A stretch of 64,000 nucleotides of DNA from Candidatus Forterrea multitransposorum CG_2015-17_Forterrea_25_41 (GCA_009392915.1 CP045477.1:128001-192000), one strand, 5' to 3'. Shown: positions 23,648-62,083, counted from the stretch's first letter. Made by a program: numbers and translations. The notes: generated by a model from the letters alone, not told the origin.

Positions 23648-23982
23648 AGGTTATTTATAGTTTTTTCTTATATTTTATTTTTAATAATCTTTTTTTAAAT
23701 TAATTTTTATAATTAATAAATATCTTTAAAAGGTTATTTTCAATTCCTTTATAAATATTTTGCTTCTTATTAATATTTATGTATTTCAAAATACTTTTAT
23801 CAAAAACAAGATTTTTACAAATCTACTTATTTTCTGTAGTTAACTTTAATCTCCTTTAGAGGGAGAGAATTTAATATTTATCGGTTTATATAATATTTAT
23901 AGTACTTTATTAAAATAAAGTCTAAACATATTTATAGTAATTTTTAAAAAAAATATATTTATAAAAAAGGAGTTAATAATTT

Positions 23983-30610: not shown

Positions 30611-33600
30611 ATGAGTAAAAGATATTTTACAATAATTTTCTTTATATTTCTAATAATAGGTTTATCTGTTCCTATTTTTTCTGCAGAAATAAACCTAAAT
30701 CCTTCTAAAACTTATTACTACAACCAAGAAATTAATCTAGGAACAACTTCTCTTCCAGAAGAAACTTTCTATGTAAACCTAAAAATAACTTCTGAAAACA
30801 GAACTTTATTTGAAAGAGATTTTTTAAAAGAAGAAGCTTTTAACATCCCTTTTATCTTTCAAGACTTCTACCCTTCTTCTTTAACTTTAACTTATAATTA
30901 TTTTTCAGTTTCTAAAGATTTACTTGAAACAAAAGAAGCTAATTTACTTTTAACAAAACTAAACCAAGAGATTGAATATTTTTTCTGTAATGAAATTGAA
31001 TGTGAAAAAGAACTTTTTGATGTTATTGAAGAAAATAAAGATTTCTATCTTTCCTCTTCTCTAAAAAACATGTCTTTTACAGTAAAGATAACTTCACAAG
31101 ATTATTTAAAAGACTACAAAGAAGTATCTTTACCTTTAAAACTTAATTTAAAAGAAGGAGTTTATTCTTTAGAGATTTCAACACTTCTTGATGATTCAAT
31201 ATTTTCAAAGACTTTAGATATTATTGTAGTCTCACAAGATCAGATTTCTTCTCCTGAAAACAATCCTTCAGGTCTTGAAGGTTTAGGTTCTGGTGTTCAA
31301 GGTGTTCCTTCTCAAAATATTTTTCAAAAAATAAAAAGTAACAGCTTACAAGATAATTTAAGAAGCTATTGGTATATTCTTTTAATAATTATTATTTTAT
31401 TATTTTTAATATTTAAAAAAAGAAAAAAAGAACCTATGCAAGAAAATATTAAAAAAGAAAGTTCTCTTTCAAGAAGAGAAGCAAGAAAAATACATTTATT
31501 TATATTATTAATAATTATTTCTTTATTTTCACAAATTACTTTTGCAAACTTTGTTGATAAAGAATACGAGTTTAGTTACTTTACAGATGATTATAAACTT
31601 TTAGAAAAAAACTTTCCTCAAGAAAACGAAATTTCTTTATATCTTACAAATTTAAAGCAAACTAATTCTTATTTTTTACCTTTAATAAACCATACAAACC
31701 AATCTTTAGTTTATTCTCAGAAAAAAGAACTTTATCAAGGAACACTAGAATACATTCCAATATATTCTTTATTTGCAATTGATATAAATAAATCACAAGG
31801 AAATTATGCTCCTTTCTTGCCAAATGAACAATATTCTCAATATTGTAAACCAGTTTTAGATTATTTTAAAAATCATCCTGTTAGTACAAAAGTAGATTTA
31901 ATAAACAGAAATAAATTTTATTTAACAAATTATATTGGTTTTTCAAAAGAATGTATAGATGAGCTTATCTCTAAAAGATGGCTTCAAGAAAAATATGTTT
32001 TAGCAGAAATTAAATATTCTCCTAAAGATTTTGATAATCAATCAAAAATTATTCAAGAAGAATTATTTTTTGAAAGTGATTTATTTTCAGATTCATTAAC
32101 TCTTCCAATAAACATTATTAAAACAGATTCTGCAATTGTCTACACTTATCCAGATCCAAAAAACTATAATAGCATAAGACTTGAAGTTGAGGAAAATGGT
32201 TGGATCTTAAGTAATAGAGTAAATTATCCTTATAGTTTTACAGAAATGGAAGAAGTTTTTACTTTTAATTTAACTGAAGGTGCTTTTGGGTCCTTTAGAT
32301 ATACTCTTAATAATTATAATGAAAATTTTGCAGATGTTACTGTTAATTATTTAGATAAAGAAGAATCTTTATCTTTTAGTAATTTTTTACCATCAAGTTA
32401 TTTTTCTATAAATGATGGTAATTTTAATACAGATGTTATAAGTAAATTAAATAGAAATAATGGTCATTTAATATTTAACAATTATCAATTATATAATGTT
32501 GTGGAAAACAGAAGAAAAAGAAGATTATCAATAAATGATAATTATCAAGATTCTTTAAATGTTTTATCAAGAAAAGAATATTCTTTAGTATATACTCCTT
32601 CTTTTTATAATGAAAATAATTTTTATCTTCATTTAAATTCAGGAAAATACTTAAACCCAATAATTAAAGGTAACATGCATTTATTTTATGATGTTGATCC
32701 TTTACTTTTCAAAACCATTGATTTGTTTATGATAAATAATGATAATGGTAAATTTTATTTTTCAGAAAACATGGCAAACTATAATTATAGTACAACAAGT
32801 TTTCTTCTAGAAAACGATACTCTTAAAATCAATGAAATATATTCTTCAAAAGACTATACTTCTTTCCATATTCTTTTTAAAGATGAAAATGTTCCTATAG
32901 TAATTTCAACAGATAGAAAAAATATTCTTTCAACAAACGATCCTTATTTTTATATTTATAAAGATTATTTTATAATGACTTTAAATGGTACTTTAAGAGT
33001 TTATAAAAATAAAAATATAAATATTACAGAAAAAGTAAACACTTATAGTAATTATGATGATAAATTTTTAACATTAACAGGCAGAAATCCTAATTTTGAT
33101 AAAAATCAAAACATTTATTTTACAAATAATCTAAAATTATTTAATGACTATATATATGATGTCTCAACAGCACAAGACCTATCTTTAATTGAACAAAAAG
33201 TATTTTGGGCAAATTCTTTTAAAAAAGCAGACTTAGAAGTTGATGATTGGTTCTCTGAAAATAGTTTTTGTGATTCTAATCTTTTAATGGAAGATTTTAA
33301 TAAAGTTTCAGAAAATCTAAAAAGACTAAATTTTACAATTCTTAAGTACCCTAATCTTAATTTAACTCCTTTTAGTAATGTTTTAGAAAATACTAAAAAC
33401 TATATTATTCCAAGAAACACTTTTACAAAAGAAAATTATGATTTTTTATGTAATTATACAAAAGAAGATTCTTTTAGAAACTATTCTAATATTATTTTAA
33501 ATTCTTCAGAATATTTAAATGATCAAAATAGTTTTATTGAACAACTTTCTTTTTTCCAAACTCCAATCTCTCAAATCTATCCTGGTCCTGATAATTATAA

Positions 33601-34480
33601 AGCTAAATATTTATCTGATTATTTTACTTCTTATAAAGAAGGTATTATTTTTATAGATGAAAATAATATTATTAAGGGTGCTTCTTCTCTTAATTTTAAG
33701 GATGATTATTCTTCAGTAATTGATTTCTTTTCAAATTATTTAGTGTTTGACAGATTATCTATCTTTTATCCTGATAATTTAGTTTTTAGTTTTGAAACTT
33801 CTGAAAATTTAGCAACTAGAAATTATATTAGAAATAATTTTTTAAAAGATAAAGAAAAATTATCTCTAAAATTTAAACTTCCAAAAAGAAGTGATGAGTT
33901 AGATGAAGATTATATTTATGAAAGATTTATTTTTCAAGATAGAGTAAATAATTATGTTGGTAATTGTACAAGGTTAAGTTTAGATGTTGCAAGAAAATAT
34001 ATCTATAACAATGTACGTAATTTTTCAGAAGATAACTCTTGGTGGGGTTCAGATTATAGAAGAGAAGATGCTTGGTTTCTTGCAAAAGAAAATCAAGTTA
34101 TTTGGAATCATGAAAATGATCTTCCTTTAAATCAAGAAAATGTTTTTGAAGGTGTTGTTTTAGGGGTCTATATTGGTTCAACAGAATACACTTATAGTCC
34201 TGATTCAACAGTTCTTATTAGAGCTGGAAAAACTTTTAAAGATCTAGAATACACACATACTATGCCATATCTTGATAATTATAAAAATAAAACAGGAATT
34301 ACTCTTAATGCAGGTTCAAGAAGTGTTAGTGTTGAAAACGCTTTTGAGTATACTTCTTCTTATGGAAGAGAATTAAGAGAGATAATTGTTCCTAGAAATT
34401 TTTATGATAATAAAATAAAAGATAAGTATGGTAAAACAGAACTTGATTATGTTAAAGAATATTTAACTTCTTTTGACTAA
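30611..34480 (+). CDS. Giant secreted/membrane-associated protein (1289 aa), hypothetical
   Basis: N-terminal signal peptide and two internal hydrophobic segments (about aa 250-270 and 300-320); N-glycosylation sequon-rich; no catalytic motif recognised. Confidence 0.4.
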   Translation: MSKRYFTIIFFIFLIIGLSVPIFSAEINLNPSKTYYYNQEINLGTTSLPEETFYVNLKITSENRTLFERDFLKEEAFNIPFIFQDFYPSSLTLTYNYFSVSKDLLETKEANLLLTKLNQEIEYFFCNEIECEKELFDVIEENKDFYLSSSLKNMSFTVKITSQDYLKDYKEVSLPLKLNLKEGVYSLEISTLLDDSIFSKTLDIIVVSQDQISSPENNPSGLEGLGSGVQGVPSQNIFQKIKSNSLQDNLRSYWYILLIIIILLFLIFKKRKKEPMQENIKKESSLSRREARKIHLFILLIIISLFSQITFANFVDKEYEFSYFTDDYKLLEKNFPQENEISLYLTNLKQTNSYFLPLINHTNQSLVYSQKKELYQGTLEYIPIYSLFAIDINKSQGNYAPFLPNEQYSQYCKPVLDYFKNHPVSTKVDLINRNKFYLTNYIGFSKECIDELISKRWLQEKYVLAEIKYSPKDFDNQSKIIQEELFFESDLFSDSLTLPINIIKTDSAIVYTYPDPKNYNSIRLEVEENGWILSNRVNYPYSFTEMEEVFTFNLTEGAFGSFRYTLNNYNENFADVTVNYLDKEESLSFSNFLPSSYFSINDGNFNTDVISKLNRNNGHLIFNNYQLYNVVENRRKRRLSINDNYQDSLNVLSRKEYSLVYTPSFYNENNFYLHLNSGKYLNPIIKGNMHLFYDVDPLLFKTIDLFMINNDNGKFYFSENMANYNYSTTSFLLENDTLKINEIYSSKDYTSFHILFKDENVPIVISTDRKNILSTNDPYFYIYKDYFIMTLNGTLRVYKNKNINITEKVNTYSNYDDKFLTLTGRNPNFDKNQNIYFTNNLKLFNDYIYDVSTAQDLSLIEQKVFWANSFKKADLEVDDWFSENSFCDSNLLMEDFNKVSENLKRLNFTILKYPNLNLTPFSNVLENTKNYIIPRNTFTKENYDFLCNYTKEDSFRNYSNIILNSSEYLNDQNSFIEQLSFFQTPISQIYPGPDNYKAKYLSDYFTSYKEGIIFIDENNIIKGASSLNFKDDYSSVIDFFSNYLVFDRLSIFYPDNLVFSFETSENLATRNYIRNNFLKDKEKLSLKFKLPKRSDELDEDYIYERFIFQDRVNNYVGNCTRLSLDVARKYIYNNVRNFSEDNSWWGSDYRREDAWFLAKENQVIWNHENDLPLNQENVFEGVVLGVYIGSTEYTYSPDSTVLIRAGKTFKDLEYTHTMPYLDNYKNKTGITLNAGSRSVSVENAFEYTSSYGRELREIIVPRNFYDNKIKDKYGKTELDYVKEYLTSFD

Positions 34481-39515: not shown

Positions 39516-41327
39516 ATGGGTAAAACTTATTTAGAAACAATTAAATATTTAATTGTTGCAGATTTTCAAGTAGATGGTTTAGTTGAAAAACCAGATGTTA
39601 TTGGTGCTATTTTTGGACAATCTGAAGGTCTTTTAGGTTCACAACTTGATATTAAAGAACTTCAACAGAATGGAAAAATAGGAAGAATAGAAATTACAAC
39701 TAGTCATAATAACAATAAAACTTTTGGAACTTTAAAACTTCCATGTTCTCTTTCAATGGTTGAAACTGTAATCATAGGTGCATCTATTGAATCTATTGAT
39801 AAAGTTGGTCCATGTGACACTAGATTTACTATTAAGAAAGTAGAAGATACAAGAGGACTTAAAAGAAAACAAATTAAAGATAGAGCAATTGATCTTTTAG
39901 GAAAATTAATGCAAGAAGAAATTCCTGACACAAAAGAGCTTATGGAAGAAATTGTTGATACTTTTAAAACAAAAGAAATTGTTTTTTATGGTCCAGATAA
40001 ACTTCCAGCAGGCCCAACAATTGATGCAAATAAAGAAATTATTATTGTTGAAGGAAGAGCAGATGTAATAACTATGTTAAAATATGGATTTACAAATGTT
40101 ATTTCAACTGGTGGTGCTAGAGTTCCAGCTTCTCTTGCAAATATTTGTAAAGATAAAATGGTAACTTTATTTTTAGATGGAGATAGAGGTGCTGATATTC
40201 AACAAAATCAACTTGTAAGAGCAATTAAAGTTGATTATATTGCAAGAGCTCCAGATGGAAAAGAAGTTGAAGAATTAACACAAAAAGAAATTAATCAAGC
40301 ACTTAGAAGAAGAATTAAATCAACTTTTGTTTTAGATTTAAAAGATAAAAGTAAAGATGATAGAAATTCTAAAAGTTTTTCAACTCAACCAAATATTGTT
40401 AAAAATACTAAATTTTCAACAACAAATGATCATAAAGTAATTTCTTCAAGACCAAGCTTTGATTCAAGACCTAAGTTTGATGGAAATAGAAGAGATGATA
40501 GAAGAGATGATAGAAGAGATGATAGGTTTAAAGAAAAACCTGTAAATGATTTTTCAAGTATGCTTTCAAATATTCCTGATGTTGAAAGAATTGATGTTTC
40601 TAATGAAAGATCTAACTTTAGAGATAATAATAGAAATAAACATAATTCATTTCAAAAAGAAAGACCAAACTATGATAGAAACTCTAAATTTGATTCTTCT
40701 AAAAAGACTTTTGATTCTAAAAAGACTTTTGATTCAAGAAAACCTTTTGACTCAAAAAATAATTTAGAGGCTGATAAAGCATTAAATAAACCTTCTCAAA
40801 CTAAAATAACTTTAAAAGATAGACTTGAGAGTGCTTTAAAAGAATTTGATAGTAAATCACAAGGAGATAAGTCTTTAAAAGAAAGTGTTTCTGAATCTAT
40901 TGATAAAAAAATAAATACTTCTCTAAAAACTGAAGCTTCTTATCCTGTAAAAGCAGCTGAAGCTTTAAATAAACCAAAAGAAGAAGTTAAAGTAGAGGTT
41001 AAAAAGAAAAAACCTCTTGCAAAGATTACAGAAAAAAGTAAAAAGAATTTTTTAAAGATTCTAGAAGAAGTTGATGGTAAAGGACAATCTAGAATTTTAA
41101 ATGAAAAATTAAGAAGGATAGGAAGTTCAAAGAGTAGTGAACTTTTATCTAAAATAAAATCTTTTAAAACTGGTAAGATTTTTGCAGTTGTAACTGATCT
41201 TGAAGTTGATGTTGAGATTTTAAAACTTTTAAAAGAAAAAGATGCTTCTTTTATTGTTTCTCCAAAATCTAAAATTAAAGAAGATCAAGAGATAAACATT
41301 GTAACTTACAATGAATTAAAGAAATAG
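39516..41327 (+). CDS. dnaG: Archaeal DNA primase DnaG (Toprim) with a long low-complexity C-terminal extension
   Basis: N-terminal KYLIVADFQVDGLVEKPDVIGAIFGQSEGLLG and the Toprim IIVEGRADV..DGDRGAD. The C-terminal about 280 aa is R/D/K/S-rich with (RRDD)x3 and (KKTFDS)x3 repeats. Confidence 0.75.
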   Translation: MGKTYLETIKYLIVADFQVDGLVEKPDVIGAIFGQSEGLLGSQLDIKELQQNGKIGRIEITTSHNNNKTFGTLKLPCSLSMVETVIIGASIESIDKVGPCDTRFTIKKVEDTRGLKRKQIKDRAIDLLGKLMQEEIPDTKELMEEIVDTFKTKEIVFYGPDKLPAGPTIDANKEIIIVEGRADVITMLKYGFTNVISTGGARVPASLANICKDKMVTLFLDGDRGADIQQNQLVRAIKVDYIARAPDGKEVEELTQKEINQALRRRIKSTFVLDLKDKSKDDRNSKSFSTQPNIVKNTKFSTTNDHKVISSRPSFDSRPKFDGNRRDDRRDDRRDDRFKEKPVNDFSSMLSNIPDVERIDVSNERSNFRDNNRNKHNSFQKERPNYDRNSKFDSSKKTFDSKKTFDSRKPFDSKNNLEADKALNKPSQTKITLKDRLESALKEFDSKSQGDKSLKESVSESIDKKINTSLKTEASYPVKAAEALNKPKEEVKVEVKKKKPLAKITEKSKKNFLKILEEVDGKGQSRILNEKLRRIGSSKSSELLSKIKSFKTGKIFAVVTDLEVDVEILKLLKEKDASFIVSPKSKIKEDQEINIVTYNELKK

Positions 41328-42115: not shown

Positions 42116-43897
42116 ATGAAATTTAAAATTATTTTACTTATATTTTTATTATTAATTACTCCTTTAGGATATCTTGAAGAAACAGATAGTCAATCTTTAG
42201 ATTTTGATGTAATAAAAACAAAATTTATGGATGTTAATGTTTCAATTGAAATTCCAATATATCTTGATCAATATTCTCAAGAATCTTCTTTTGTCTTAAC
42301 TACTCCTGTTTTTGTAACAACTAATTCTCAATCAGTAGACTTAGAGGCTTATTATTTAGAAAATGGACAAAAAGTTTATGCAGATTACAGTGAAGATGAA
42401 TATGGTAATAAATTTGCAATTTTTGATATTAAAAAAATAACTAAAGCTCAATATTCTTTTTTTGTAGATGCAAGAATAGTTTCTGAAAATAAAATTATTT
42501 TTGCAGAAGATGTTTTTTCTCTTGAAAATGAAATTACTGATTTTAAGGAATATAAAGCTTCAACAAGATATATTAATTCAGATAGTAGTGAAATTATTTC
42601 AATGGCAAATTATTTAAAAAAATCAGATAATGCTTTAAAAGAACTTACAAATATTATTGATTGGACTTATAATTTTGTCGAATATGATTTAAGTTATTCA
42701 GATAAAACTGTTGAAGCAGTAAATGTTTTATCAGAAAGAAAAGGAGTTTGTTCAGAGTTTGCAATTCTTGCAGCTGCTATCTTAAGAGAAAGAGGTTTTC
42801 CTACAAGATATGTGACAGGTTATGCAAATAGTACTCTTGATTGGCAAGCCCATGCATGGCTTGAAGTATACATCCCTGGACAAGGTTGGGTTCTTGCAGA
42901 TCCTACTTTTGGAGAAGTTGGTCTTGTTGATGCAAGTCATCTTTTAATTTCAAGATCTTTTGATCCTTCAGAAATTAAAGATAGAATAACTTCTTTTGGA
43001 AATGTATCTTTAAGATTTGGAGAAAAAAAAGCAAGCTTTAAGATTAATGATCATAAAAGTTTTTCAGATCTTGGATATTCAAATGCAATTTCTGTAAATT
43101 TTGATTTTCCTGAAAAAATAAAAGAAAATTCTGCTTTTTTTATAAAAGCAAATATTACAAATACAACCTCAAGAGCAATGTCTGTTTTTTTTATGTTAAA
43201 TACACATCAGGATTTTGAATTAATCTATCCTGAAAATACAGATAAAATAATATATCTTGAACCATTTAAAGAAGAAGTTTTAACTTTTTATTTAAAATCA
43301 AATGTTGATGTTCCAAATAATTATTATAAAACTTATAGTTTTAATCTTAAGTCACAAGTAACAGACTATAGTGGTTCTTTAAATATTTATAATGATGAAG
43401 GTTATTTTCAAGAAGCTTTTTTTGTAACAGCGCCTTTATTGTATGTTGATAAAGATGTTTTAAAATATAGTTTAGAAATTATTAATTTTACTGATGAAAA
43501 AAAAGTTTTAAATTTTGATTTTAATAACAATAATGTTTTAAGTTCTGAAATTATAGAGGTTCCAATTAATTCTACGTATGTTTTTGAAAAAGAATTTGGT
43601 GTTTTAAAAGATACTTCTTTTAGTTATTTAATTTCACAAGATTATGATCTTTCAAATAATTTTTTTATTTTTGATGATTCTATTGAAGAAAAAGAAGTTG
43701 TTGTAATTGATGGTAATGTTCAAGATCAAGTTAAGCCTTCTGAAAAAGATAATAATTTAGTTGTTTGGGAAGATGAAAAATTTCCTAAAGAAGAAACTTC
43801 TTCAAATAACTTAATTGGTATAATTATTGTGATTGTTTTTATTATTTTTACAATAGTTATTTTTGTTTCAAATAAGAAAAATAAAGAAGGTTTATAG
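42116..43897 (+). CDS. Transglutaminase-like cysteine-protease-domain protein, secreted with a C-terminal membrane anchor
   Basis: GVCSEFAILAAAILRERGFPTRYVTGY ... HAWLEVYIPGQGWVLADPT is the Cys-His-Asp transglutaminase core; N-terminal signal peptide and C-terminal TM helix GIIIVIVFIIFTIVIFV. Confidence 0.6.
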   Translation: MKFKIILLIFLLLITPLGYLEETDSQSLDFDVIKTKFMDVNVSIEIPIYLDQYSQESSFVLTTPVFVTTNSQSVDLEAYYLENGQKVYADYSEDEYGNKFAIFDIKKITKAQYSFFVDARIVSENKIIFAEDVFSLENEITDFKEYKASTRYINSDSSEIISMANYLKKSDNALKELTNIIDWTYNFVEYDLSYSDKTVEAVNVLSERKGVCSEFAILAAAILRERGFPTRYVTGYANSTLDWQAHAWLEVYIPGQGWVLADPTFGEVGLVDASHLLISRSFDPSEIKDRITSFGNVSLRFGEKKASFKINDHKSFSDLGYSNAISVNFDFPEKIKENSAFFIKANITNTTSRAMSVFFMLNTHQDFELIYPENTDKIIYLEPFKEEVLTFYLKSNVDVPNNYYKTYSFNLKSQVTDYSGSLNIYNDEGYFQEAFFVTAPLLYVDKDVLKYSLEIINFTDEKKVLNFDFNNNNVLSSEIIEVPINSTYVFEKEFGVLKDTSFSYLISQDYDLSNNFFIFDDSIEEKEVVVIDGNVQDQVKPSEKDNNLVVWEDEKFPKEETSSNNLIGIIIVIVFIIFTIVIFVSNKKNKEGL

Positions 43898-43965
43898 ATT
43901 ATTATATTTATAAAAATAGATATCAAATCTATTTATAAATATTTATCTTCTTAATTATAGTATAG

Positions 43966-44481: not shown

Positions 44482-44590
44482 ATTTTTTTACAAAATCCTT
44501 ATATTTATAAATATTATGCCTAACATATAAGTATAATATATTTTAATAAATGATAGCTGATGTTTATAGATAGAATAAAAATTCAAAGAA
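44482..44590 (+). repeat. About 110-bp promoter/leader repeat, copy 1; identical copy at 47411-47519
   Basis: An identical string (AAAATCCTTATATTTATAAATATTATGCCTAACATATAAGTATAATATATTTTAATAAATGATAGCTGATGTTTATAGATAGAATAAAAATTCAAAGAAA) includes a TTTATAAA TATA box and the first 10 codons of the downstream gene. Confidence 0.85.
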
Positions 44591-46044
44591 AGGTACAACC
44601 TTTTTTTGAAAAAAATGTTAACGAAAAAAGAAAAGCTATTAGTCCACTTATAGCAACCATTCTTTTAGTGGTTGTTGCCATAGCTATAATCGGTATTGTT
44701 CTTTCCTGGGGTAAAGGTTTTACAAACACAACTCTTTCTTCTGCAGATAATATTAATACCAAAAATTCTTTCACAGGTCTTGTTTGGTCTTTTGAAACTT
44801 TTGGAAATAATGTCTTGGTTGAAAATAAATCAAAACAAGATTTAAACATTACTGGTTATACTATTAACTCTCTTGATCATAATGGTTTTTGGATAAACTC
44901 ATATCATCCTTTAGAAACTACTTTATCAATTTCTCCTGGAACTTCAAACAATGTTCCTTTGATCTGTATGCCTGAGGGAAAATTTATTTTAACTCTAAAG
45001 ACATCCTCAAATGAAAATATACCTCTTAACATCTCTCCTTCGAAAACACTTTTAGGAGGAACTTGTGAAGAATATAATGTTTCTCTTTGGGAATTTGCAG
45101 CAGAAACTGGAAGTTATGAGATTAATGAGATTGCTTTAGAGCAGGGTAATAATTATAGTAATTATAATTTTTTATTTAGTTGGACTGAAGTAAGTGCTAC
45201 TATAAATGATTCTAATACATTTAGTTCAACAAGTGTTGGTGGAATCACTAAGCAAACTACATGGATGGAGGTAGGTAAGAGATATAAATTAAAAATTTCA
45301 GGGACAACAACCGCTTCAGGAATAGTTATATTTTCTGGAAACAACGGAACATATATAGGTTCTTTAACTACTGGCAATTTTAGTCAAACATTTAAAAAAA
45401 CAATACTTGCTGTAAATCCTGGTTTAGACTTATATATAAGGAATTCATCAGCAGGAGTTACAACAATTACTGAATTGTCAGTAATAGAAATTCCTCCCCT
45501 TCCTGATTTTAACACAGGCACAAAATATTTACAAAATACTACTTCAGGAACAACTGCTATTGAAAGTAAACAAGCTTATGGTGAATGGGAGTTTGATGTT
45601 TATAAAGGTAGTACATTAACCAATTCATTTGTAAAAATAATCTCAGATGCCATAATAGGCAGCGTAGGTGGAAATTCTTATACTATTCAATTTAATGTAG
45701 ATGAAGCATTAAAGTTATGGAGAGGTGGCACTGCCATTATGAGTACAGCAAATTCCTACATCTCCAAAAACACTTGGTACAGAATAAAAGTAGCAAGACT
45801 TCAAAGTTCTGGAACATTTGCAATTATAGTTCCTTCGATGACCACAACCTATCCAAAAGACACATTTGCAGTTTTCATAAAAGGTGGGGAGTTTGGAGAT
45901 GATTGGACTTTAGTAGATACAACAGGTGGAAGTGGAACAAACCCTGTCACAGACTCTACATACACTACAAGCAATTATTTTGTTGCAGACCTTGATGTTG
46001 GAGATAGAATAGCAAATATTAAAATGAAGGAGAGTGTTGACTAA
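44560..46044 (+). CDS. Class-III-signal-peptide (archaeal type-IV-pilin-like) surface protein, paralog 1
   Basis: Leader ...EKRKA|ISPLIATILLVVVAIAIIGIVL is the prepilin-peptidase substrate motif (K/R-A/G then a hydrophobic helix); about 460-aa extracellular domain rich in Thr/Ser/Asn. Confidence 0.6.
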   Translation: MFIDRIKIQRKVQPFFEKNVNEKRKAISPLIATILLVVVAIAIIGIVLSWGKGFTNTTLSSADNINTKNSFTGLVWSFETFGNNVLVENKSKQDLNITGYTINSLDHNGFWINSYHPLETTLSISPGTSNNVPLICMPEGKFILTLKTSSNENIPLNISPSKTLLGGTCEEYNVSLWEFAAETGSYEINEIALEQGNNYSNYNFLFSWTEVSATINDSNTFSSTSVGGITKQTTWMEVGKRYKLKISGTTTASGIVIFSGNNGTYIGSLTTGNFSQTFKKTILAVNPGLDLYIRNSSAGVTTITELSVIEIPPLPDFNTGTKYLQNTTSGTTAIESKQAYGEWEFDVYKGSTLTNSFVKIISDAIIGSVGGNSYTIQFNVDEALKLWRGGTAIMSTANSYISKNTWYRIKVARLQSSGTFAIIVPSMTTTYPKDTFAVFIKGGEFGDDWTLVDTTGGSGTNPVTDSTYTTSNYFVADLDVGDRIANIKMKESVD

Positions 46045-46045
46045 A

Positions 46046-47383
46046 ATGTTTTCAAAAGTAAATAAAAAAGCTATTAGTCCACTTATAGCAACCATCCTTT
46101 TAGTGGTTGTTGCCGTAGCTATCATCGGTATTGTTCTTTCTTGGGGAAAAGGCTTTACAAACACAACTCTTTCAAAAGCTTCAAGTATTGAAGTTTATTC
46201 AGAATCAGAAATTGGTTTTTATTTAAATCTTCAAAACTCAATAAACGGAAGAACCACAGTTTCTTATAACCCTCCACAAAATACTACTTATAATAATCTA
46301 ACAATAGTTGGTTATGGCCTTTTAGGATATACAACAAACATAGTTCCTTTAGAACCTCCAATAACTATTTCAAAATCACAAACTGCAAATATTGATCATG
46401 GTATAATTTTACCTGAATTTGATTTAGTTTTATATTTAGATAACAATACTATGATAACTAAATTTAATTTAAAACAAGAAATTAAACAACCTTCTTCTTG
46501 TCCTGAAGGTTTTATTCCAGTTCCTGGAAATCATTTATATGGAACCATGAATGAAAGAGGTGGTTTTTGTGTAATGAAATATCATGCAAAAAATGACACT
46601 GGCTCAAAAATAAATTCAACTTGTATAACAGGTCTAGAAGGTTCTGATAGTAATCTAACAGTTAAATCAGTTCCAGAAATTGCTCCTTCAGTAAATATAA
46701 ATTATTGTGCTGCAAAAAAATCTTGTGAAAATTCAGGATATATTTTAATGAATAATTCTCATTGGATGACTATTGCAAGAAATATTGAACTAAATGAATT
46801 AAATTATGTTTCTGGAAATCTAGGTGAAGGCTTTATTTTTAGAGGGCATTATAATAATAATCCATCTTTAATTATTGAAGCAAATTCAGATGATTCAAAT
46901 AATTTTTATTTAATAAACAGTCCAAACTCAGATCAAAGAAGAACTTTATATTTATCTAATGGAGAAATAATTTGGGATTTTACTGGAAATGCATGGAATA
47001 TATTAGAAGATTTAGTTTTAATAAAGGATCATGCAGATGGTTTTTATACTTCTGATGATACTGAGTTTAATTCTGGTAATGATAATTTATTTCTAACGGA
47101 TTATTATAAAGGTAGTAATAATTATTATTTAAAATTTAATCAATTAGGTAATACTATTTTTAATTATAAAGATATTTATTTATTAAATTCAAAATACAAT
47201 GCTGTAAATAATGGTATTGGTATTTACCATGGAAATAGTAATAGAGGAAGTGTTTCTGAAACTATTACTTTTATGATGAGAGGTGGAGATAAACAAAATG
47301 GTCAATATTCTGGTTTAATGGAATTAACATTCCCTAATTTAAGTTCTAATGGAAATACAGTTGGATTTAGATGTGTGAAATAA
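46046..47383 (+). CDS. Class-III-signal-peptide surface protein, paralog 2 (short leader)
   Basis: MFSKVNKKA|ISPLIATILLVVVAVAIIGIVLSWGKGFTNTTLS is identical to the pilin module of paralogs 1 and 3. The remainder is unrelated and Cys-rich. ATG lies 2 nt after the paralog 1 stop; the track start at 46034 is a GTG. Confidence 0.55.
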   Translation: MFSKVNKKAISPLIATILLVVVAVAIIGIVLSWGKGFTNTTLSKASSIEVYSESEIGFYLNLQNSINGRTTVSYNPPQNTTYNNLTIVGYGLLGYTTNIVPLEPPITISKSQTANIDHGIILPEFDLVLYLDNNTMITKFNLKQEIKQPSSCPEGFIPVPGNHLYGTMNERGGFCVMKYHAKNDTGSKINSTCITGLEGSDSNLTVKSVPEIAPSVNINYCAAKKSCENSGYILMNNSHWMTIARNIELNELNYVSGNLGEGFIFRGHYNNNPSLIIEANSDDSNNFYLINSPNSDQRRTLYLSNGEIIWDFTGNAWNILEDLVLIKDHADGFYTSDDTEFNSGNDNLFLTDYYKGSNNYYLKFNQLGNTIFNYKDIYLLNSKYNAVNNGIGIYHGNSNRGSVSETITFMMRGGDKQNGQYSGLMELTFPNLSSNGNTVGFRCVK

Positions 47384-47410
47384 ATATATCTCTTTTTTTA
47401 AAAAATTATT

Positions 47411-47519
47411 AAAAATCCTTATATTTATAAATATTATGCCTAACATATAAGTATAATATATTTTAATAAATGATAGCTGATGTTTATAGATAGAATAAAA
47501 ATTCAAAGAAAAGAAAAAA
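47411..47519 (+). repeat. About 110-bp promoter/leader repeat, copy 2
   Basis: Identical to 44482-44590. Confidence 0.85.
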
Positions 47520-49333
47520 CTTTTTTTGAAAAAAATGTTGACAAAAAAAGAAAAGCTATTAGTCCACTTATAGCAACCATCCTTCTTGTAGTTGTTGCTG
47601 TTGCCATCATCGGTATTGTTCTTTCTTGGGGAAAAGGTTTTACAAACACAACTCTTTCTTCTGCAGATAATGTTAATACCAAAAATTCTTTCACAGGTCT
47701 TATTTGGTCTTTTGAAACTTTTGGAAATAATGTTTTAGTTGAGAATAAATCAAAACAAGATTTAAATATTACTGGTTATACTATTAATTCTCTTGATCAT
47801 AATGGTTTTTGGATAAACTCTTATCATCCTTTAGAAACCACTCTTTCAATATCTCCTGGAACTTCAGATAATGTGTCTTTGATTTGTATGCCAGAGGGTA
47901 AATTTATTTTAACTTTAAAAACCTCAACAAATGAAAACATACCTCTTAACATCTCTCCTTCAAAAACAAGTAGAGGTTCTACTTGTGAGGAGTATAATGT
48001 TTCTCTTTGGGAGTTTGTAGCAGAAACTGGAAGTTATTCTATTAATACTTTTACAATGCAGGAAGGAGAACTTGTAACTAACGGTGGGTTTGAGACTGAT
48101 TTATCTGGTTGGTTAAGAACAAGTCATATTATTCAAAATAATGATGTTGCAGATGTTAATCTTATTGGCTCTGATTATATTTTAGAACAACAAAATGTTG
48201 TAGAAATGGGTAAAAGTTACTTAGTTACTTTTGAAATTAAAAACTATTATTCAGGTGCAGTTTATTTTTATAATGTTAATTTGCCAGGGGTAGGTAGTGG
48301 TTATACTGCAACTTCAAATGGGGTTTATGCACTAACATTTACATCTAGTGGAAATAACATCTTATTTCGAACTGTAACTAATTTTGTAGGATCTATTGAT
48401 AATATCTCAATAGTAGAAATCCCTCCTCTTGAAACAATAACCACAGGCACAAAATACTTAGAGAACACAACAGCAGGAACAACTGCTATTGAAAATAAAC
48501 AAGCTTATGGTACTTGGGAATTTGATGTTTATAAAGAAAATGCAAATTATCATTATACATATTTTATAAATTCTACCACAAATACAATGGATAATAGTTA
48601 TAGAATTACTTTAAAAAATTTTAATGCTTTAGATTTAAGAAAACAAGGTGATTCAACTTTAACATTATTATTAACTTCTGATAATTATATTCAAGATAAT
48701 ACTTGGTATAGAATAAAAGTTGCAAGACTTCAAAGCGAAGGTGTGTTTAACGACATACCTACTTTGCAGACTAGTGATATGGTGAATAGTGCAACACAAC
48801 CTTACCAATCATTTACAAGTAAGGGGAGATATGGATTCAGTGCTATTGCAAATGGAACTACAATTACTCATGCTAATACAGCAGATGAAATAGACCTTGT
48901 AAATACAGGAAAATACCTTGTAGAATTTGATTTAAAATTAAACAGCGGGATAGCCCCAGATGTAGCATTAGCAGCAAGTGTAACAAGTGGGTTGTATTCT
49001 AATTCAGTTCAATCTATTGTAGGGAGAAATAGTTTTATACTTACTGCAAGTAATTCAATTACAGGGATATTAAGGTTTTATAACAGTTCTACTGAGTCTG
49101 CAGACTACGAAGTTTCAAACTTAACAATCAGAAGAATCTACCCAAAAGACACATTTGCAGTATTTATTAAAGGTGGAGAGTTTGGAGATGATTGGACTTT
49201 AGTAGATACAACAGGTGGAAGTGGAACAAACCCTGTCACAGACTCTACATATACAACAAGCAATTACTTTGTAGCTGACCTTGATGCTGGAGATAGAATA
49301 GCTAATGTTAAAATAAAACCAAATATTGAATAA
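47480..49333 (+). CDS. Class-III-signal-peptide surface protein, paralog 3, with a central CBM4/9-like carbohydrate-binding-type module
   Basis: First about 190 aa and last about 65 aa are nearly identical to paralog 1. The central region begins NGGFETDLSGWL, reminiscent of CBM_4_9 N-termini. Confidence 0.6.
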   Translation: MFIDRIKIQRKEKTFFEKNVDKKRKAISPLIATILLVVVAVAIIGIVLSWGKGFTNTTLSSADNVNTKNSFTGLIWSFETFGNNVLVENKSKQDLNITGYTINSLDHNGFWINSYHPLETTLSISPGTSDNVSLICMPEGKFILTLKTSTNENIPLNISPSKTSRGSTCEEYNVSLWEFVAETGSYSINTFTMQEGELVTNGGFETDLSGWLRTSHIIQNNDVADVNLIGSDYILEQQNVVEMGKSYLVTFEIKNYYSGAVYFYNVNLPGVGSGYTATSNGVYALTFTSSGNNILFRTVTNFVGSIDNISIVEIPPLETITTGTKYLENTTAGTTAIENKQAYGTWEFDVYKENANYHYTYFINSTTNTMDNSYRITLKNFNALDLRKQGDSTLTLLLTSDNYIQDNTWYRIKVARLQSEGVFNDIPTLQTSDMVNSATQPYQSFTSKGRYGFSAIANGTTITHANTADEIDLVNTGKYLVEFDLKLNSGIAPDVALAASVTSGLYSNSVQSIVGRNSFILTASNSITGILRFYNSSTESADYEVSNLTIRRIYPKDTFAVFIKGGEFGDDWTLVDTTGGSGTNPVTDSTYTTSNYFVADLDAGDRIANVKIKPNIE

Positions 49334-52098: not shown

Positions 52099-53391
52099 AT
52101 GTTTGGTCTTTTAAAAAAGAAATTCAAAGATTTGTCAGATAAAATATTAGGTAAATCTAAAGAAAAAATTGATTCTGAAGATCAAAGTCAAGAAGAAACT
52201 TCTTCTGATACTTCTAAGACTTTAGATGTTCCTGAAGAAAAATCTCCTGTTTCTAAAGAGCCAATATCTAATTCTGAAGAACTTTCTGTTCCTAAAGTTG
52301 AAGATGCTAAAGAAGAAATCCCTGTTCCTAAGGTTGAAGATGTTAAAGAAGAAAAATCTACTCCTAAGGTTGAAGATGTTAAAGAAGAAATCCCTATTCC
52401 TAAAGTTGAAGAAATTAAAGAAGAAAAACCTATTTTAAAAGAAGAAATAAAAGAAGATAAACAACCTTCAAAAGCATATACAGATTTAGAATCTAAAAAA
52501 GTTGAAGACGTAAAAAAAACAACTTTTACAAAAATAAAAAGTTTATTTTCATCAAAAATAAAATTATCTGAAAAAGAAATATCTGAATTTTTAGATGATT
52601 TTGAAATTTCTTTACTTGAAGCAGATGTTTCTATTGATTCTTCAACAGCAATTATTGAAGATTTAAAAAAAAGATTAGTTAATGCTTCTTTTTCAAAAAC
52701 AAATATCTTAGAAGATATTAAAAAAAATATTAAAGAAACTTTAAAAGAACAATTAAATATTGATTGTGATATTAATAATTATATTTCTCAAAAACAAAAT
52801 GAACCTTTAATAATTTTAATAATTGGACCTAATGGTGCTGGAAAAACAACAACTATTTCTAAATTTGCAAATCTTTATAAAAATCAAGGTAAATCTGTGG
52901 TTCTAGCTTCTTCAGATACTTTCAGAGCAGGAAGTATTGATCAATTAGAAGTGCATGCAAAGAGATTAGGTGTAAAAGTTGTAAAACAAAATTATGGTTC
53001 AGATCCTGCTGCAGTTGCTTTTGATGCAGTTGCTTCTGCTAAAGCAAATAAAAACGATGTTGTTTTAATTGATACTGCTGGTAGACAAGATACAAATATT
53101 AATCTAATGCAAGAACTCTCAAAAATAAAAAGAGTAGTAAAACCAGATCTTACAATTTATATTGGAGAATCTCAATCTGGACAAACAATTGTTGAACAAA
53201 TACAAAAGTTTGATAAAGAAATAGGTGTTACTGGAGTAATTTTAACAAAGATTGATACTGACCCAAAAGGTGGAGTTGCAATTTCTATTCTTAATGAAAT
53301 TAAAAAACCTATTTTCTATATTGGTACAGGTCAAGAGTATAATGATATAGAAAAATTTTCTCCAGAATATATTATTGAAAGAATTGTTTAG
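52099..53391 (+). CDS. ftsY: Signal recognition particle receptor FtsY with an acidic repeat N-domain
   Basis: NG domain LIIGPNGAGKTTTISKFA, DTAGR, TKIDTD; N-terminal (PKVEDVKEE)n repeats. Confidence 0.85.
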   Translation: MFGLLKKKFKDLSDKILGKSKEKIDSEDQSQEETSSDTSKTLDVPEEKSPVSKEPISNSEELSVPKVEDAKEEIPVPKVEDVKEEKSTPKVEDVKEEIPIPKVEEIKEEKPILKEEIKEDKQPSKAYTDLESKKVEDVKKTTFTKIKSLFSSKIKLSEKEISEFLDDFEISLLEADVSIDSSTAIIEDLKKRLVNASFSKTNILEDIKKNIKETLKEQLNIDCDINNYISQKQNEPLIILIIGPNGAGKTTTISKFANLYKNQGKSVVLASSDTFRAGSIDQLEVHAKRLGVKVVKQNYGSDPAAVAFDAVASAKANKNDVVLIDTAGRQDTNINLMQELSKIKRVVKPDLTIYIGESQSGQTIVEQIQKFDKEIGVTGVILTKIDTDPKGGVAISILNEIKKPIFYIGTGQEYNDIEKFSPEYIIERIV

Positions 53392-55619: not shown

Positions 55620-56483
55620 TTGTGTATTTTAATGATTGAAATAATTTTATTTATTAAACTTTTTATAATATTAATTGCCACAAGTATAGGTGCTTGGACA
55701 GACTATAAAACAGGGTATATCTATAACTGGATAACTTTTCCTTTAATTATCTTAGGTTTATTATTATTAATTTTAGAATCTTTTGTTTTATTTAATCTTG
55801 GTTGGTTTTATTTTTTAAAAGTGTTTATAATTGGTTTATTAATATATGGTATTGGTTATTTATTTTATTATTTTGGAAAATTAGGAGGAGGAGATGTAAA
55901 ATTATTTTTAGGAATTCATCTTTTAGTTCCTTATGTAAATGGTCAACTTTTAATTTTATGGGTTTTAATTTTATCTTCTCTATTATCTGTCTTAATTGTT
56001 TCAATTAAATATTTATTTATTCTTTTTAGAAAAATTACATTTACTGAATTTAAAAAAATTATAAAAACAAGAACCTCTAAAATGATTATTTATTTATTAA
56101 TGTTTATTTTTTTTGTTTTTCTCTTATATTCTGCAATCTATAATGTTGGTTTTTCAAAATATTATTACTTATTATTAATTCCTATATTTATAGGTCTTTT
56201 AACAGTTTTATTTGAAGAAGAAATTAAGAAATATATTTATCTTAAAAGAAAAGTTTTAAGGAAAATAGAAGAAGGAGATGTTTTAGCAATTGAGTTTTTA
56301 TCAAAAGAACTTCTTAATAAACTAAATATGGGAAATAGACAAGTTATTGAAGAAAAAGATTTATTGATTATTAAAAATTTAGATGTTAAATCTTTACCTA
56401 TATATGATAATCTTCCAAGATTTGGACCTTATATACTTTTAGGTTTTATTTTTTCTTTTTTATATTTATTTTTCTTATTTTAA
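55620..56483 (+). CDS. Archaeal prepilin/preflagellin peptidase (A24 family, PibD/FlaK-like)
   Basis: Polytopic; first catalytic Asp in IGAWTDYKTGYI, second in GGGDVKLFLG (GxGDxK). Confidence 0.6.
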   Translation: MCILMIEIILFIKLFIILIATSIGAWTDYKTGYIYNWITFPLIILGLLLLILESFVLFNLGWFYFLKVFIIGLLIYGIGYLFYYFGKLGGGDVKLFLGIHLLVPYVNGQLLILWVLILSSLLSVLIVSIKYLFILFRKITFTEFKKIIKTRTSKMIIYLLMFIFFVFLLYSAIYNVGFSKYYYLLLIPIFIGLLTVLFEEEIKKYIYLKRKVLRKIEEGDVLAIEFLSKELLNKLNMGNRQVIEEKDLLIIKNLDVKSLPIYDNLPRFGPYILLGFIFSFLYLFFLF

Positions 56484-59994: not shown

Positions 59995-60140
59995 TTTATT
60001 TAAAAAAGAAAATAAATATTTCTCTCCACTAATAAATATACTTAATCCTTTATTTAAGGGAGGGGAAAAAAAGGTCTTTCCATAAAAGAAAGTACCTTTC
60101 TAATAGATGCATATTTCTAAATAATATATATCCTTTAACA

Positions 60141-60190
60141 AATATATCTCTTTTCAAGCAGGGGGTAGCTGGCCGAGTAAATTAATTTAG
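60141..60190. repeat. GC-rich island repeat, copy R1
   Basis: AATATATCTCTTTTCAAGCAGGGGGTAGCTGGCCGAGTAAATTAATTTAG; also present at 60856-60905 and, slightly diverged, at 61942-61986. Confidence 0.9.
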
Positions 60191-60513
60191 TATTTAAATC
60201 TCTTTTCATAACTTTTATGATTAAACCATTCTATAATAATAGATATAATTTTAATTTGATCACTTTTAATTGTGTATACTAATCTCCATCCATTAAATAG
60301 ATTATATTTCCAAAGGTTTGTAATTTTATATTTTTTAATATATTCTTTTGGCCATAATTTTTTTGAAATTTTAATTCCAGAAGTAGGATCTTTTTTAAGA
60401 GTTTCAATTGCTTTTAGAATATTTTTATACAAATCATGATTTTCTTTAAGGTTTTCAAAATTAATTTCTAATTCTCTTGAAACAAATACAACATAATTTT
60501 CTTTATCAATCAT
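60187..60513 (-). CDS. RelE/ParE-superfamily toxin-like protein
   Basis: ..NILKAIETLKKDPTSG...LWKYNLFNGWRLVYTIKSDQIKIISIIIEWFNHKSY fits the RelE/ParE fold; 4-nt overlap with the upstream small gene. Confidence 0.5.
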   Translation of the reverse strand: MIDKENYVVFVSRELEINFENLKENHDLYKNILKAIETLKKDPTSGIKISKKLWPKEYIKKYKITNLWKYNLFNGWRLVYTIKSDQIKIISIIIEWFNHKSYEKRFKY

Positions 60514-60779: not shown

Positions 60780-60855
60780 ATTATATAACTTTATATAAGT
60801 TAAATTTTTAAATATTTTTATTTGCCTAAAGTATATATTAATATGTGTTTTAAAA

Positions 60856-60905
60856 AATATATCTCTTTTCAAGCAGGGGGTAGCTGGCCGAGTAAATTAA
60901 TTTAG
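60856..60905. repeat. GC-rich island repeat, copy R2
   Basis: Identical to R1 over about 50 nt. Confidence 0.9.
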
Positions 60906-61904
60906 AACTTTTTTTAATTCTTTTTCATTTGGTAAAAATGTACTTAATTTTTTAGGAATTTTAGATAATTTGTATTCTGCTATTCCTAATGGATATTTAT
61001 TATTTAATAAAGAATATTCTACTATTGTCTTATTCTTAGATTTACATATTAATAATCCAATAGTTTCTTTATCTTCTTTTCTTTTCATATCTTTATTTAT
61101 TACATTAATATAAAACCCTATTTGGCCAAGATATTCTGGTTTGAATTCAGTAATTTTTAATTCAATTACTATAAATCTTTTTAAAATATAATTATAAAAT
61201 AATAAATCTATATAAAAATCTTTATTTCCAACATTAATTTTAAATTGTTTTCCAATAAATGCAAATCCTTTTCCTAATTCTATTAAAAATTTAGATATAT
61301 TTGAAACAATAGATTCTTCTAATTCTTTTTCATTAAATTCTTCTTTTAAATGTAAAAAATCTAATATATAATTTTCTTTAAAATAATTTAAAATAAATTT
61401 TGAATCTTTTTTTGGAAGTGTGTTTAAAAAATTAATGTTTATGTTTTTTTTTCTTGCATATAAATTTAATTCTATTTGATGTTCTAATAATACTTTAGAC
61501 CATAAATTATTAATTGATTCTTGAATATAGAAAAGTGCTTCTTCTTTATTTTTAATTTTATCTAGAATTAATCTTATTTGATTCCAAGGTAATTGTGCCA
61601 CAACTTGTGGCACATTTTCTGTTTTAAAAAATAAATAGAATTTTCTCATATAAAATAAATTTCTTCTCGAAAAACCTTTTACATTAGGGAATTCTTTTCT
61701 TAAATCTTTTTCTATTTGCCCAATTAAATTTATTCCCCAATTACTTTCTTTTTGTTTAAAATAAATTTCTTTTCCAAGAGTGTAATAAAGATTAATTAAT
61801 TCTGAATTTACTTTTAATATTGCATTTTGTCTTGATTTAATAATGTTTTCTTTAATTTTAGAAATAAATTCTATATATTCTTTATTAAATATATTTTTTT
61901 CCAT
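60897..61904 (-). CDS. DUF1016/YhcG-family PD-(D/E)XK nuclease
   Basis: ..VAQLPWNQIRLIL ... GKGFAFIGKQ ... FYIDLLFYNYILKRFIVIELKITEF.PEYLGQIGFYIN has the YhcG-family layout (D...ELK core). Confidence 0.55.
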   Translation of the reverse strand: MEKNIFNKEYIEFISKIKENIIKSRQNAILKVNSELINLYYTLGKEIYFKQKESNWGINLIGQIEKDLRKEFPNVKGFSRRNLFYMRKFYLFFKTENVPQVVAQLPWNQIRLILDKIKNKEEALFYIQESINNLWSKVLLEHQIELNLYARKKNININFLNTLPKKDSKFILNYFKENYILDFLHLKEEFNEKELEESIVSNISKFLIELGKGFAFIGKQFKINVGNKDFYIDLLFYNYILKRFIVIELKITEFKPEYLGQIGFYINVINKDMKRKEDKETIGLLICKSKNKTIVEYSLLNNKYPLGIAEYKLSKIPKKLSTFLPNEKELKKVLN

Positions 61905-61941
61905 ATCTTATCTATTCTAGATATATTTTATATTTTTACAA

Positions 61942-61986
61942 AAATATATCTCTTTTCAAGCAGGGGGTAGCTAGCTGAGTAAAAAA
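61942..61986. repeat. GC-rich island repeat, copy R3 (3' part diverged)
   Basis: AAATATATCTCTTTTCAAGCAGGGGGTAGCTAGCTGAGTAAAAAAG, in the divergent intergenic region between 60897-61904 (-) and 62084-63298 (+). Confidence 0.85.
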
Positions 61987-62083
61987 GATTAAATTTTAAT
62001 TTCTATAGCCAATAACCTACATTAACATTATAAACTCTTTCTCTCTTAAATATATTATTAAATATAAAAAATAAGATTATATT

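Follow-up and report, generated by a model that had tools for sequence, protein, structure and literature searches.

Bacterial modular type IV pilins, such as PilB (vWA) and PilC (concanavalin-A-like lectin) of Streptococcus sanguinis (Raynaud et al., 2021, PMC8179133), consist of a small N-terminal pilin module and a bulky module that is not specific to pili, joined by a short loop. Grafts of the concanavalin-A-like (ConA-like)/PF13385 lectin type are among the commonest architectures, and adhesion at the filament tip has been proposed; the survey concerns the bacterial IPR012902 motif and does not mention archaea (PMC8179133). In the archaeal bindosome a class III signal peptide is found on a non-pilin binding domain and is processed by a PibD/EppA-type A24 peptidase. 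Archaeal censuses list the bindosome, and class III signal peptide proteins that bear galactose-binding or adhesin-like domains; in the passages searched, they describe no fusion of a pilin to a virus-type tail-fibre module and no array whose members have a carrier in common. Here we describe three adjacent genes, par1, par2 and par3, located in a 64-kb stretch of the Candidatus Forterrea multitransposorum genome (CP045477.1:128001-192000, the whole of which is called the window).

The three genes probably form a small array of archaeal modular type IV pilin-like adhesins, with viral-type heads captured in par1 and par3 and no programmed switch. As in the bacterial modular pilins, a pilin module is followed by a linker and a grafted lectin-type module that is not specific to pili, as judged from AlphaFold2 (AF2) domains and cargo homology. 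In contrast to the bacterial proteins, the carrier belongs to the archaeal TIGR02537/Pilin_N type, the leaders measure 9-26 amino acids (aa), and the graft comprises two or three beta domains. Its nearest relatives are viral proteins in tail-fibre position, and in two of the copies different grafts are combined with the same promoter and carrier. The bindosome consists of solute-binding proteins that belong to ABC transporters, whereas par1-3 carry lectin/tail-fibre-type modules, have a pilin-like beta-sandwich before the cargo and form arrays with exchanged cargo. The features are as follows, the par1 module limits being taken from the par1/par3 alignment and a module-by-module comparison with relatives:

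44492-44559, + strand: putative promoter/5' untranslated region, copy 1, upstream of par1, with A/T-rich TATA-like element TTATATTTATAAATA
44560-46044, + strand: par1, modular pilin-like protein of 494 aa, complete open reading frame (ORF)
44560-44637, + strand: par1 predicted leader, aa 1-26
44638-45117, + strand: par1 pilin module, aa 27-186
45118-45486, + strand: par1 carbohydrate-binding-module (CBM)-like sandwich, type B, aa 187-309
45487-46041, + strand: par1 ConA-like jelly roll without insert, aa 310-494
46046-47383, + strand: par2, modular pilin-like protein of 445 aa counted from the ATG; in-frame GTG at 46034
46046-46072, + strand: par2 predicted leader, aa 1-9
46073-46495, + strand: par2 pilin module, aa 10-150
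46496-47380, + strand: par2 C-type-lectin-like domain of putative formylglycine-generating enzyme (FGE) subtype, aa 151-445
47412-47479, + strand: putative promoter/5' untranslated region, copy 2, upstream of par3, with a T7 run between it and the par2 stop
47480-49333, + strand: par3, modular pilin-like protein of 617 aa, complete ORF
47480-47557, + strand: par3 predicted leader, aa 1-26
47558-48037, + strand: par3 pilin module, aa 27-186
48038-48415, + strand: par3 CBM-like sandwich, type A, aa 187-312
48416-48769, + strand: par3 ConA-like jelly roll, part a, aa 313-430
48770-49135, + strand: par3 inserted beta domain, aa 431-552
49136-49330, + strand: par3 C-terminal strands of the jelly roll, aa 553-617
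55620-56483, + strand: A24-family (PibD/FlaK-type) prepilin peptidase (PF01478); the gene callers place its start at 55632

In the mechanism that we favor, the A24 peptidase would cut after K-A and so remove the class III signal peptide, which has 9 aa in par2 and 26 aa in the other two proteins. The hydrophobic α1 helix and a small beta-sandwich would make up the carrier ("pilin") module, joined by the WEF.AETGSY linker to the head. The head would be a CBM-like beta-sandwich plus a ConA-like jelly roll in par1 and par3, with an extra beta domain within the par3 jelly roll, and an FGE-subtype C-type-lectin-like domain in par2. By means of the helix the proteins would be built into, or sit at the end of, a type IV filament whose genes lie elsewhere in the genome, or at minimum would be anchored in the membrane, and the heads would bind glycans on other cells or matrix. 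par1 and par2 would form one transcription unit, with par3 driven by a duplicate of the same promoter. The par1/par3 head would most likely have been taken from the tail-fibre pool of uncultivated tailed viruses; its family consists overwhelmingly of pilin-free proteins in tail-fibre position, and pilin fusions make up a small minority. In the duplicated pair, promoter, pilin module and the last ~55 aa would have been kept alike by gene conversion around centres that remained old, or else the centres replaced by recombination; the outcome would be a pair of adhesins that are anchored alike but present different surfaces for binding.

The pilin module and its processing

The first-pass annotation of the window had described three adjacent genes with a common class III motif, and both points hold. 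The motif (K/R)KA-ISPLIATILLVVVA.AIIGIVLSWGKGFTNTTLS, i.e., (K/R)KA-ISPLIATILL, is present in par1, par2 and par3 and nowhere else in the 64 kb, within a 119-nt core that is 89-92% identical among the genes. The same arrangement of par1-3 is found in independent JGI, NCBI and ENA assemblies, so the array is not an assembly artefact. All three proteins score above the 20-bit cut-off of NCBIfam TIGR02537, the archaellin/type IV pilin N-terminal domain (par1 22.3, par2 23.6, par3 23.0 bits). A profile of 18 N modules matches the archaeal filament subunit 8fk7 (E 3e-6), with further matches to the solved structures 8rey and Iho670 and to a Pilin_N chain; the proposed type IV pilin-like nature is thus borne out. 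The deposited mature chain of 8rey begins VSPIIATILL, which is consistent with cleavage at KA|ISPL, and by analogy the leaders of par1-3 would be cleaved at KA|I. In the AF2 model (32-sequence alignment, mean predicted local distance difference test, pLDDT, 82.7) the N module consists of a helix (21-51) and a beta-sandwich (74-158). WEF.AETGSY forms the short linker between the pilin module and the head.

The par2 ATG lies 2 nt beyond the last base of the par1 stop codon and opens a 9-aa leader, against 26 aa in par1 and par3, all as previously annotated. A Shine-Dalgarno-like stretch, AAGGAGAG, is located within the end of par1, ahead of this ATG. From the spacing and this stretch, par1 and par2 are probably co-transcribed. 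The long leader (44560-44637, 47480-47557) carries the motif QPF[FL]EKNV.EKRKA, which recurs in P0032, P0039 and P0040, relatives with different heads. Given this recurrence, and since par1 and par3 offer no alternative canonical start in frame, the length of the leader does not stem from a misplaced start codon. In P0039 the leader contains KRKAIS twice (KKRKAISQPFLEKNVDEKRKAISPL). These features suggest either a functional pro-peptide or a recombination footprint at the cleavage-site codons.

A prepilin peptidase had been assigned to 55620-56483 and called cognate. The ORF does match Peptidase_A24 (PF01478, E 2.4e-10, 41.2 bits vs. a cut-off of 26.5), a precomputed annotation is identical, and candidate catalytic Asp residues can be read from the sequence in AWTDYK and GGGDVK. 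The word cognate goes further than the location does: the gene is 6.3 kb from the array, inside a housekeeping block and in no pilus operon. The peptidase is likely the enzyme that processes par1-3.

The nearest relatives are Iainarchaeota/Diapherotrites-type metagenome-assembled genomes (MAGs), and the array probably belongs to an Iainarchaeota-like DPANN archaeon; the episymbiotic lifestyle assumed in the first-pass annotation is conjectural. The first-pass annotation had proposed searching related genomes for the same N and C modules, and a scan with one genome per species returned 42 loci with the N module, almost all in Candidatus Iainarchaeum, ainarchaeum or Diapherotrites MAGs, several of which carry 4-10 or more copies. 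The genes fall into two classes: short pilins of 147-170 aa in conserved triplets, and long modular pilins (350-640 aa), which frequently occur in tandem. The N module is also combined with heads of other kinds, among them beta-propeller-like repeats, DUF285/BspA-like repeats and PKD + DUF1566. In a 671-kb Iainarchaeum genome, two T2SSF platform genes are immediately followed by the short-pilin triplet. The 160-aa pilin encoded there shares 69% identity with par3 across the 42 residues that start at the predicted cleavage site, the part that would need to match for co-assembly.

In the main alternative, the class III signal and helix serve export and anchoring in the membrane or S-layer alone, and par1-3 would be lectins displayed at the surface, like the sugar-binding proteins of the Sulfolobus bindosome, that never polymerise into pili. 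No assembly genes are found near the locus, par1-3 being set among housekeeping genes, and a word-limited search retrieved no short pilin of this genome. A 2026 census likewise lists class III proteins with galactose-binding domains, and the bindosome, among archaeal type IV filament systems. Against this reading stand the match of the helix region to short pilins encoded beside platform genes in a relative, the pilin-sized beta-sandwich held in the N module, and the fact that bulky bacterial modular pilins are incorporated into pili (PMC8179133). Display without a filament therefore seems unlikely to us.

The mosaic of par1 and par3

Comparison of par1 and par3 confirms a mosaic with module boundaries, seen in nearest relatives that differ by module, in phylogenetic incongruence and in a contrast of synonymous divergence. 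The N-terminal 186 aa are 92% identical between the two proteins and at most 50% identical to anything else, in agreement with the near-identical module of ~190 aa reported before. At the other end, an identical module of ~65 aa had been claimed; 54 of 55 residues are identical, and the last 9 aa diverge. This C-terminal block is 89% identical between par1 and par3 vs. at most 81% to anything else. The intervening regions had been called unrelated, a description that does not hold: the centres align collinearly, with one 122-aa insertion in par3 (aa 431-552), and include two conserved islands. The first (par1 aa 306-350, IPPL..TGTKYL.NTT.GTTAIE.KQAYG.WEFDVYK) is ~80% and the second (par1 aa 395-420, NTWYRIKVARLQS) ~75% identical, while the stretches between islands are ~25-30% identical. 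The par3 CBM gives no BLAST match to that of par1, its nearest relative being the viral-type protein P0004 (38%). Part a of the par3 jelly roll is 57% identical to P0010 and P0004 vs. 50% to par1, and the 122-aa insert is 45-58% identical to viral forms.

For the par1/par3 pair, synonymous divergence (dS) amounts to 0.08 in the leader, 0.355 in the rest of the comparison's N-module segment and 0.366 for the C-terminal block, and reaches ~1 or saturation in the CBM and variable parts (Fisher p = 2e-7 vs. the flanks). The common ancestor of the centres must therefore be much older than that of the flanks, an age difference that plain fast evolution does not account for; either the flanks underwent gene conversion or the centre was exchanged by recombination. 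On this sequence evidence, gene conversion appears to be the homogenizing process, and the flank dS of ~0.36 indicates that the last homogenization of most of the flanks is old. A history without any recombination, in which the gene was simply duplicated and positive selection then drove the centres apart very fast, would suit centres that are collinear and structurally domains of the same kind, and adhesin binding surfaces often evolve quickly. However, the contrast extends to synonymous sites, the par3 CBM and jelly roll are nearer to other genomes and viruses than to par1, the par1 CBM subtype occurs at other positions in viral proteins, and the insert is common to the viral forms. This explanation is thus very improbable.

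The upstream regions of par1 and par3 are joined by a perfect run of 100 nt (44492-44591 = 47412-47511) that spans 68 nt upstream and the first 32 coding nt, with a sharp upstream edge at 44491. An identical promoter and leader of ~110 bp had been proposed; the identity is real and the length is 100 nt. The duplicated region presumably acts as a promoter. At the divergence of the flanks such a run is unexpected (P at most ~1e-3); it points to conversion of a short tract in the recent past or else to strong constraint. A riboswitch or other structured RNA in the 100-nt leader was considered and rejected, there being no Rfam match and no significant fold (z-score only -1.7). In the C-terminal block, a perfect stretch of ~70 nt had been taken as recent gene conversion. 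A 74-nt run does exist (45889-45962); it is only marginally surprising (P ~0.05), and most flank homogenization is not recent.

Elsewhere in the window, a ~50-nt A/T-rich element (TTCCTTTATAAATATTTTG...) occurs upstream of several genes, at 20412-20461, 23740-23789 and 43904-43959, and may be a promoter consensus; a pattern search for a promoter consensus yielded no significant genome-wide motif and nothing above chance.

The pattern of par1 and par3 has counterparts in the lineage. At locus L012 of a related MAG (JAQUVR010000013.1, 1531-9122), six modular pilins form a tight operon-like row, 1-14 nt apart. A unit of two genes has recently been duplicated in tandem, the copies being 98-100% identical; in another pair, both with LamG_3 heads, identity is 76% in the first 170 aa and 22% in the rest. 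Arrays with similar N modules and dissimilar heads are thus recurrent, and L012 shows how modular-pilin arrays grow.

The first-pass annotation had read the layout as a cassette system. Programmed cassette or antigenic variation would swap the binding centres at high frequency, as in Neisseria pilE/pilS, with which par1 and par3 share a conserved pilin N-terminus, a variable C-terminal part and signatures of gene conversion between copies. Identical flanks around divergent centres are the substrate that such systems use, the 100-nt run suggests recent conversion, and tandem arrays recur in relatives. In contrast to Neisseria, there are no silent cassettes, dedicated recombination signals or population-level variation. 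All three genes are complete with start codons and none is a silent or promoterless copy; par1 and par3 share the duplicated promoter, and par2 directly follows par1. Among the Pfam-annotated genes of the window there is no recombinase, invertase or reverse transcriptase, and the inverted repeats are AT-rich chance matches. The old homogenization of the flanks also argues against frequent exchange. Strain-level recombination had been suggested as a check; the sampled population shows almost no variation, in that across 43 contigs from many samples par1 is a single sequence and par3 has three variants with one substitution each. The proposed cassette system is accordingly not upheld, and we give programmed variation very little credence. 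An invertible or shufflon-type switch was rejected on the same absence of a recombinase and of inverted repeats other than chance matches.

Viral relatives of the par1 and par3 heads

The centres had been read as the binding moiety of an adhesin, and profile, Foldseek and fold comparisons support heads that are lectin-type binding modules. In the AF2 model of par3, aa 185-314 form a beta-sandwich and residues 325-617 have pLDDT >90; the ConA-like domain adopts a jelly-roll fold of two antiparallel sheets. The predicted structure thus shows a lectin-type fold for the par3 head, and binding of glycans by the heads appears plausible. The fold is ConA-like or CBM-type, as in CBM2 of the evolved Dit of phage J-1 and in the baseplate protein gp23 of mycobacteriophage Douge. 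Against predicted viral structures, Foldseek returned a protein of an uncultured marine virus (E 5e-21), then many tail proteins. The NGGFETDLSGW motif of par3 had been likened to CBM4/9. A family profile of this region gives weak matches to the CBM chains 4d0q (E 0.0016), 4qpw and 4mgs (E ~0.03), i.e., at E 0.002-0.03, which favors the likeness, and there is no Pfam match, which does not. The 122-aa insert interrupts the par3 jelly roll; P0027 has a type-A CBM at that site, so the site accepts different modules. The type-B CBM of par1 is 33-37% identical to segments of P0022, P0015, P0030 and P0019, and these segments mostly lie elsewhere in the proteins: upstream, between or before LamG domains.

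An alignment-based scan of IMG/VR found relatives of the cargo on 44 viral contigs, where a scan with the single par3 cargo sequence had found none. The longest matches start at par3 residue 177-183, which corresponds to the WEF.AETGSY linker and to the point where par1-par3 identity collapses. From residue ~178 on, the cargo is homologous to proteins in tail-fibre position, with 50-57% identity. The cargo thus resembles the receptor-binding and CBM modules of tailed viruses both in its ConA-like or CBM-type folds and in sequence. Unlike par1 and par3, the IMG/VR proteins have no pilin module and mostly have N-terminal LamG_3 domains instead. Some pilin-free homologs have ~450 aa, and their first residue falls right on the module boundary (MSKIK.W.KGTGSYKI...); others reach 850-1050 aa with extra N-terminal LamG_3 domains, in which the PF13385 matches of homologs probably lie. 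P0004 is 51% identical over 71% of par3. Its gene follows a LamG_3 gene and is the last in a block of large structural-type genes; the contig, of 39.6 kb and from IMG/VR, further encodes YqaJ exonuclease, Dam, NinG and a replication initiator. P0010, 57% identical in the jelly roll and 78% identical at the C-terminus, is on a contig with a Phage_capsid_4 major capsid gene and Phage_cement_2, and P0016 comes from a contig of 138 kb where type II topoisomerase subunits and dCMP deaminase are encoded. The viral locus L061 carries a virion structural protein (phrog_28748, E 1e-136); par3 and the majority of the structural genes on the viral contigs have no match in PHROGs.

An exhaustive phmmer search among 1.84 billion proteins returned 1048 cluster representatives of the cargo family (E <=1e-3). 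A pilin N-terminus is present in 1 of the 130 newly returned top representatives, and the pilin motif in no viral locus. In a rough neighbor-joining tree of the jelly roll and C-terminus, par1, par3 and the pilin-fused P0003 are nested in an insert-bearing, otherwise non-pilin clade, and a second, insert-less clade holds most other pilin fusions. These relationships suggest that pilin genes captured the cargo module from a viral pool, probably more than once. Assignment of a host to the viruses from GC content alone was rejected as not possible. A preprint on viruses of nanohaloarchaea makes no mention of shared adhesins.

Alternatively, par1 and par3 could be tail-fibre genes left beside tRNA-Gly by an integrated virus. 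The cargo is homologous to viral proteins, tRNA-Gly and tRNA-Val are located just upstream, and G+C at third codon positions (GC3) is 0.15-0.20 in par1/par3, above the 0.06-0.10 of most neighbors. On the other hand, the Pfam-annotated neighborhood contains no integrase, capsid, terminase or other viral gene, and par1-3 sit among cellular housekeeping genes, outside any viral tail or structural module, sharing only the cargo with tail-fibre proteins. par1 and par3 carry the lineage's own pilin module, which is absent from all viral loci, and the same architecture is kept in several related genomes. The raised GC3 extends over the pilin module and could reflect high expression. A viral remnant is thus extremely improbable.

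The GC3 of most neighbors is about half that of par1/par3; only the aspartyl-tRNA synthetase gene (23983-25287, GC3 0.16) is similar. High expression or a foreign origin could each raise GC3 in this way.

The par2 head, the genomic setting and the meaning of the array

The head of par2 is of a different kind. Its relatives carry PF03781 (FGE-sulfatase, C-type lectin group), and the par2 family profile matches TaqVP 5vf4 (E 1e-4), SUMF2 1y4j (E 0.015) and, more weakly, TvpA; par2 itself has no Pfam match, and its protein ends in ...GFRCVK. The family profile and the relatives' PF03781 point to an FGE-subtype C-type lectin domain like that of the variable proteins of diversity-generating retroelements (DGRs; TaqVP 5VF4, TvpA, Mtd, archaeal AvpA). 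In a relative, Candidatus ainarchaeum sp. STF1_257, a par2-type modular pilin is found together with DGR parts (L027, JAQVRT010000074.1, 171-3394). The last 118 nt of the gene form a variable repeat (1421-1538) with a second copy 1.1 kb downstream, the template repeat (2633-2750), and all 18 mismatches between them fall at template adenines. An Avd-like ORF of 118 aa (2203-2556) lies between the repeats, and a reverse transcriptase-like ORF begins at 3008. Adenine-only mismatches with Avd-like and reverse transcriptase-like ORFs are the signature of a DGR, and the L027 gene would be a retroelement-diversified archaeal pilin-like adhesin.

In contrast to the DGR variable proteins, par2 has no template repeat, i.e., no second copy of its 3' end, and no reverse transcriptase within the 64 kb (the latter among Pfam-annotated genes), and a DGR acting on par2 in the window was rejected on these grounds. 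The 3' end of par2 is AT-rich and its RGG.W motif is degenerate. Together with the missing repeat, this suggests that par2 is probably not diversified at present. In one assembly's par2 (P0056, NCP72304.1, GW835_02845), the last 8 residues read PYIYKYYA instead of TVGFRCVK (window 47357-47380), with the rest unchanged; this loss of the conserved ...GFRCV end may be a frameshift or a local variant.

The window has ~24% G+C and contains archaeal housekeeping genes (S19e, L31e, eIF6, prefoldin, FtsY, SRP54 and Rpr2, an RNase P subunit); its sequence recurs in many samples, on contigs up to 839,632 bp. The array sits between Rpr2/tRNA-Gly and rpS19e, with tRNA-Gly and tRNA-Val directly upstream. 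Further upstream are ORFs of 800, 1289 and 603 aa without Pfam match and a 593-aa transglutaminase-core protein with a C-terminal hydrophobic tail (28142-30544, 30611-34480, 39516-41327 and 42116-43897); these may be further surface proteins. A ~70-nt repeat occurs in three copies (60126-60195, 60841-60910, 61928-61997). It has a G+C-rich core (CAAGCAGGGGGTAGCTGGCCGAGTAAA) in AT-rich surroundings, is apparently intergenic and may represent a small RNA or have a regulatory role. In FtsY, tandem 36-nt repeats (52276-52455) within the N-terminal part of the gene encode repeated acidic EE.P.PKVEDVK units.

Several observations weigh against an array of modular pilin-like adhesins with captured viral-type heads. 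For the carrier, Pfam Pilin_N (PF07790) gives 15-17 bits for par1-3, below the gathering score of 25.2, and the window contains no filament ATPase, platform protein or short pilin. A relative's short pilin used as query returned no match from the 839-kb contig, a weak negative given that the search was word-limited and also missed par1-3. For the heads, the LamG/ConA Pfam families give no sequence match to par1 or par3 even at E up to 1, the fold call being that of the AF2 model, and the model of the par2 head is unreliable (pLDDT 49) and too poor for a fold search. Strong purifying selection could contribute to the identical promoter/leader run. As for the viral origin, a tblastn search of the cargo against 50,697 GenBank phage records gave no match, so that no cultured phage there carries it; the viral contigs have a median GC of 36%, ~9-10 points above the archaeal loci (27%); and the direction of transfer is read only from family composition and the rough tree. 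With these points taken into account, modular pilin-like adhesins with captured viral-type heads remain our probable reading of par1-3. As a tentative and, as it stands, rather unlikely extension, the pilin N module of the lineage may be a general display platform for exchangeable or hypervariable heads, some of them viral-derived and some retroelement-diversified.

How ultra-small archaea with reduced genomes recognize and attach to other cells is largely unknown, and par1-3 are concrete candidates: three predicted surface proteins that share a pilus-type anchor while each has a lectin-type head of its own. Two of these heads are linked to a large, otherwise virus-borne receptor-binding family, and one to proteins that appear to be diversified by retroelements in relatives. 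The locus would extend to archaea the idea of modular pilins, so far documented for bacteria, and suggests a route to new attachment specificity, in which a viral tail-fibre module is captured and then subjected to duplication and gene conversion. If the N module is indeed a general display platform, the archaeon would recognize partner or host cells with the same molecular tools as viruses, possibly on the same target cells, and the exchange of receptor-binding modules between viruses and cells would shape which cells it attaches to.

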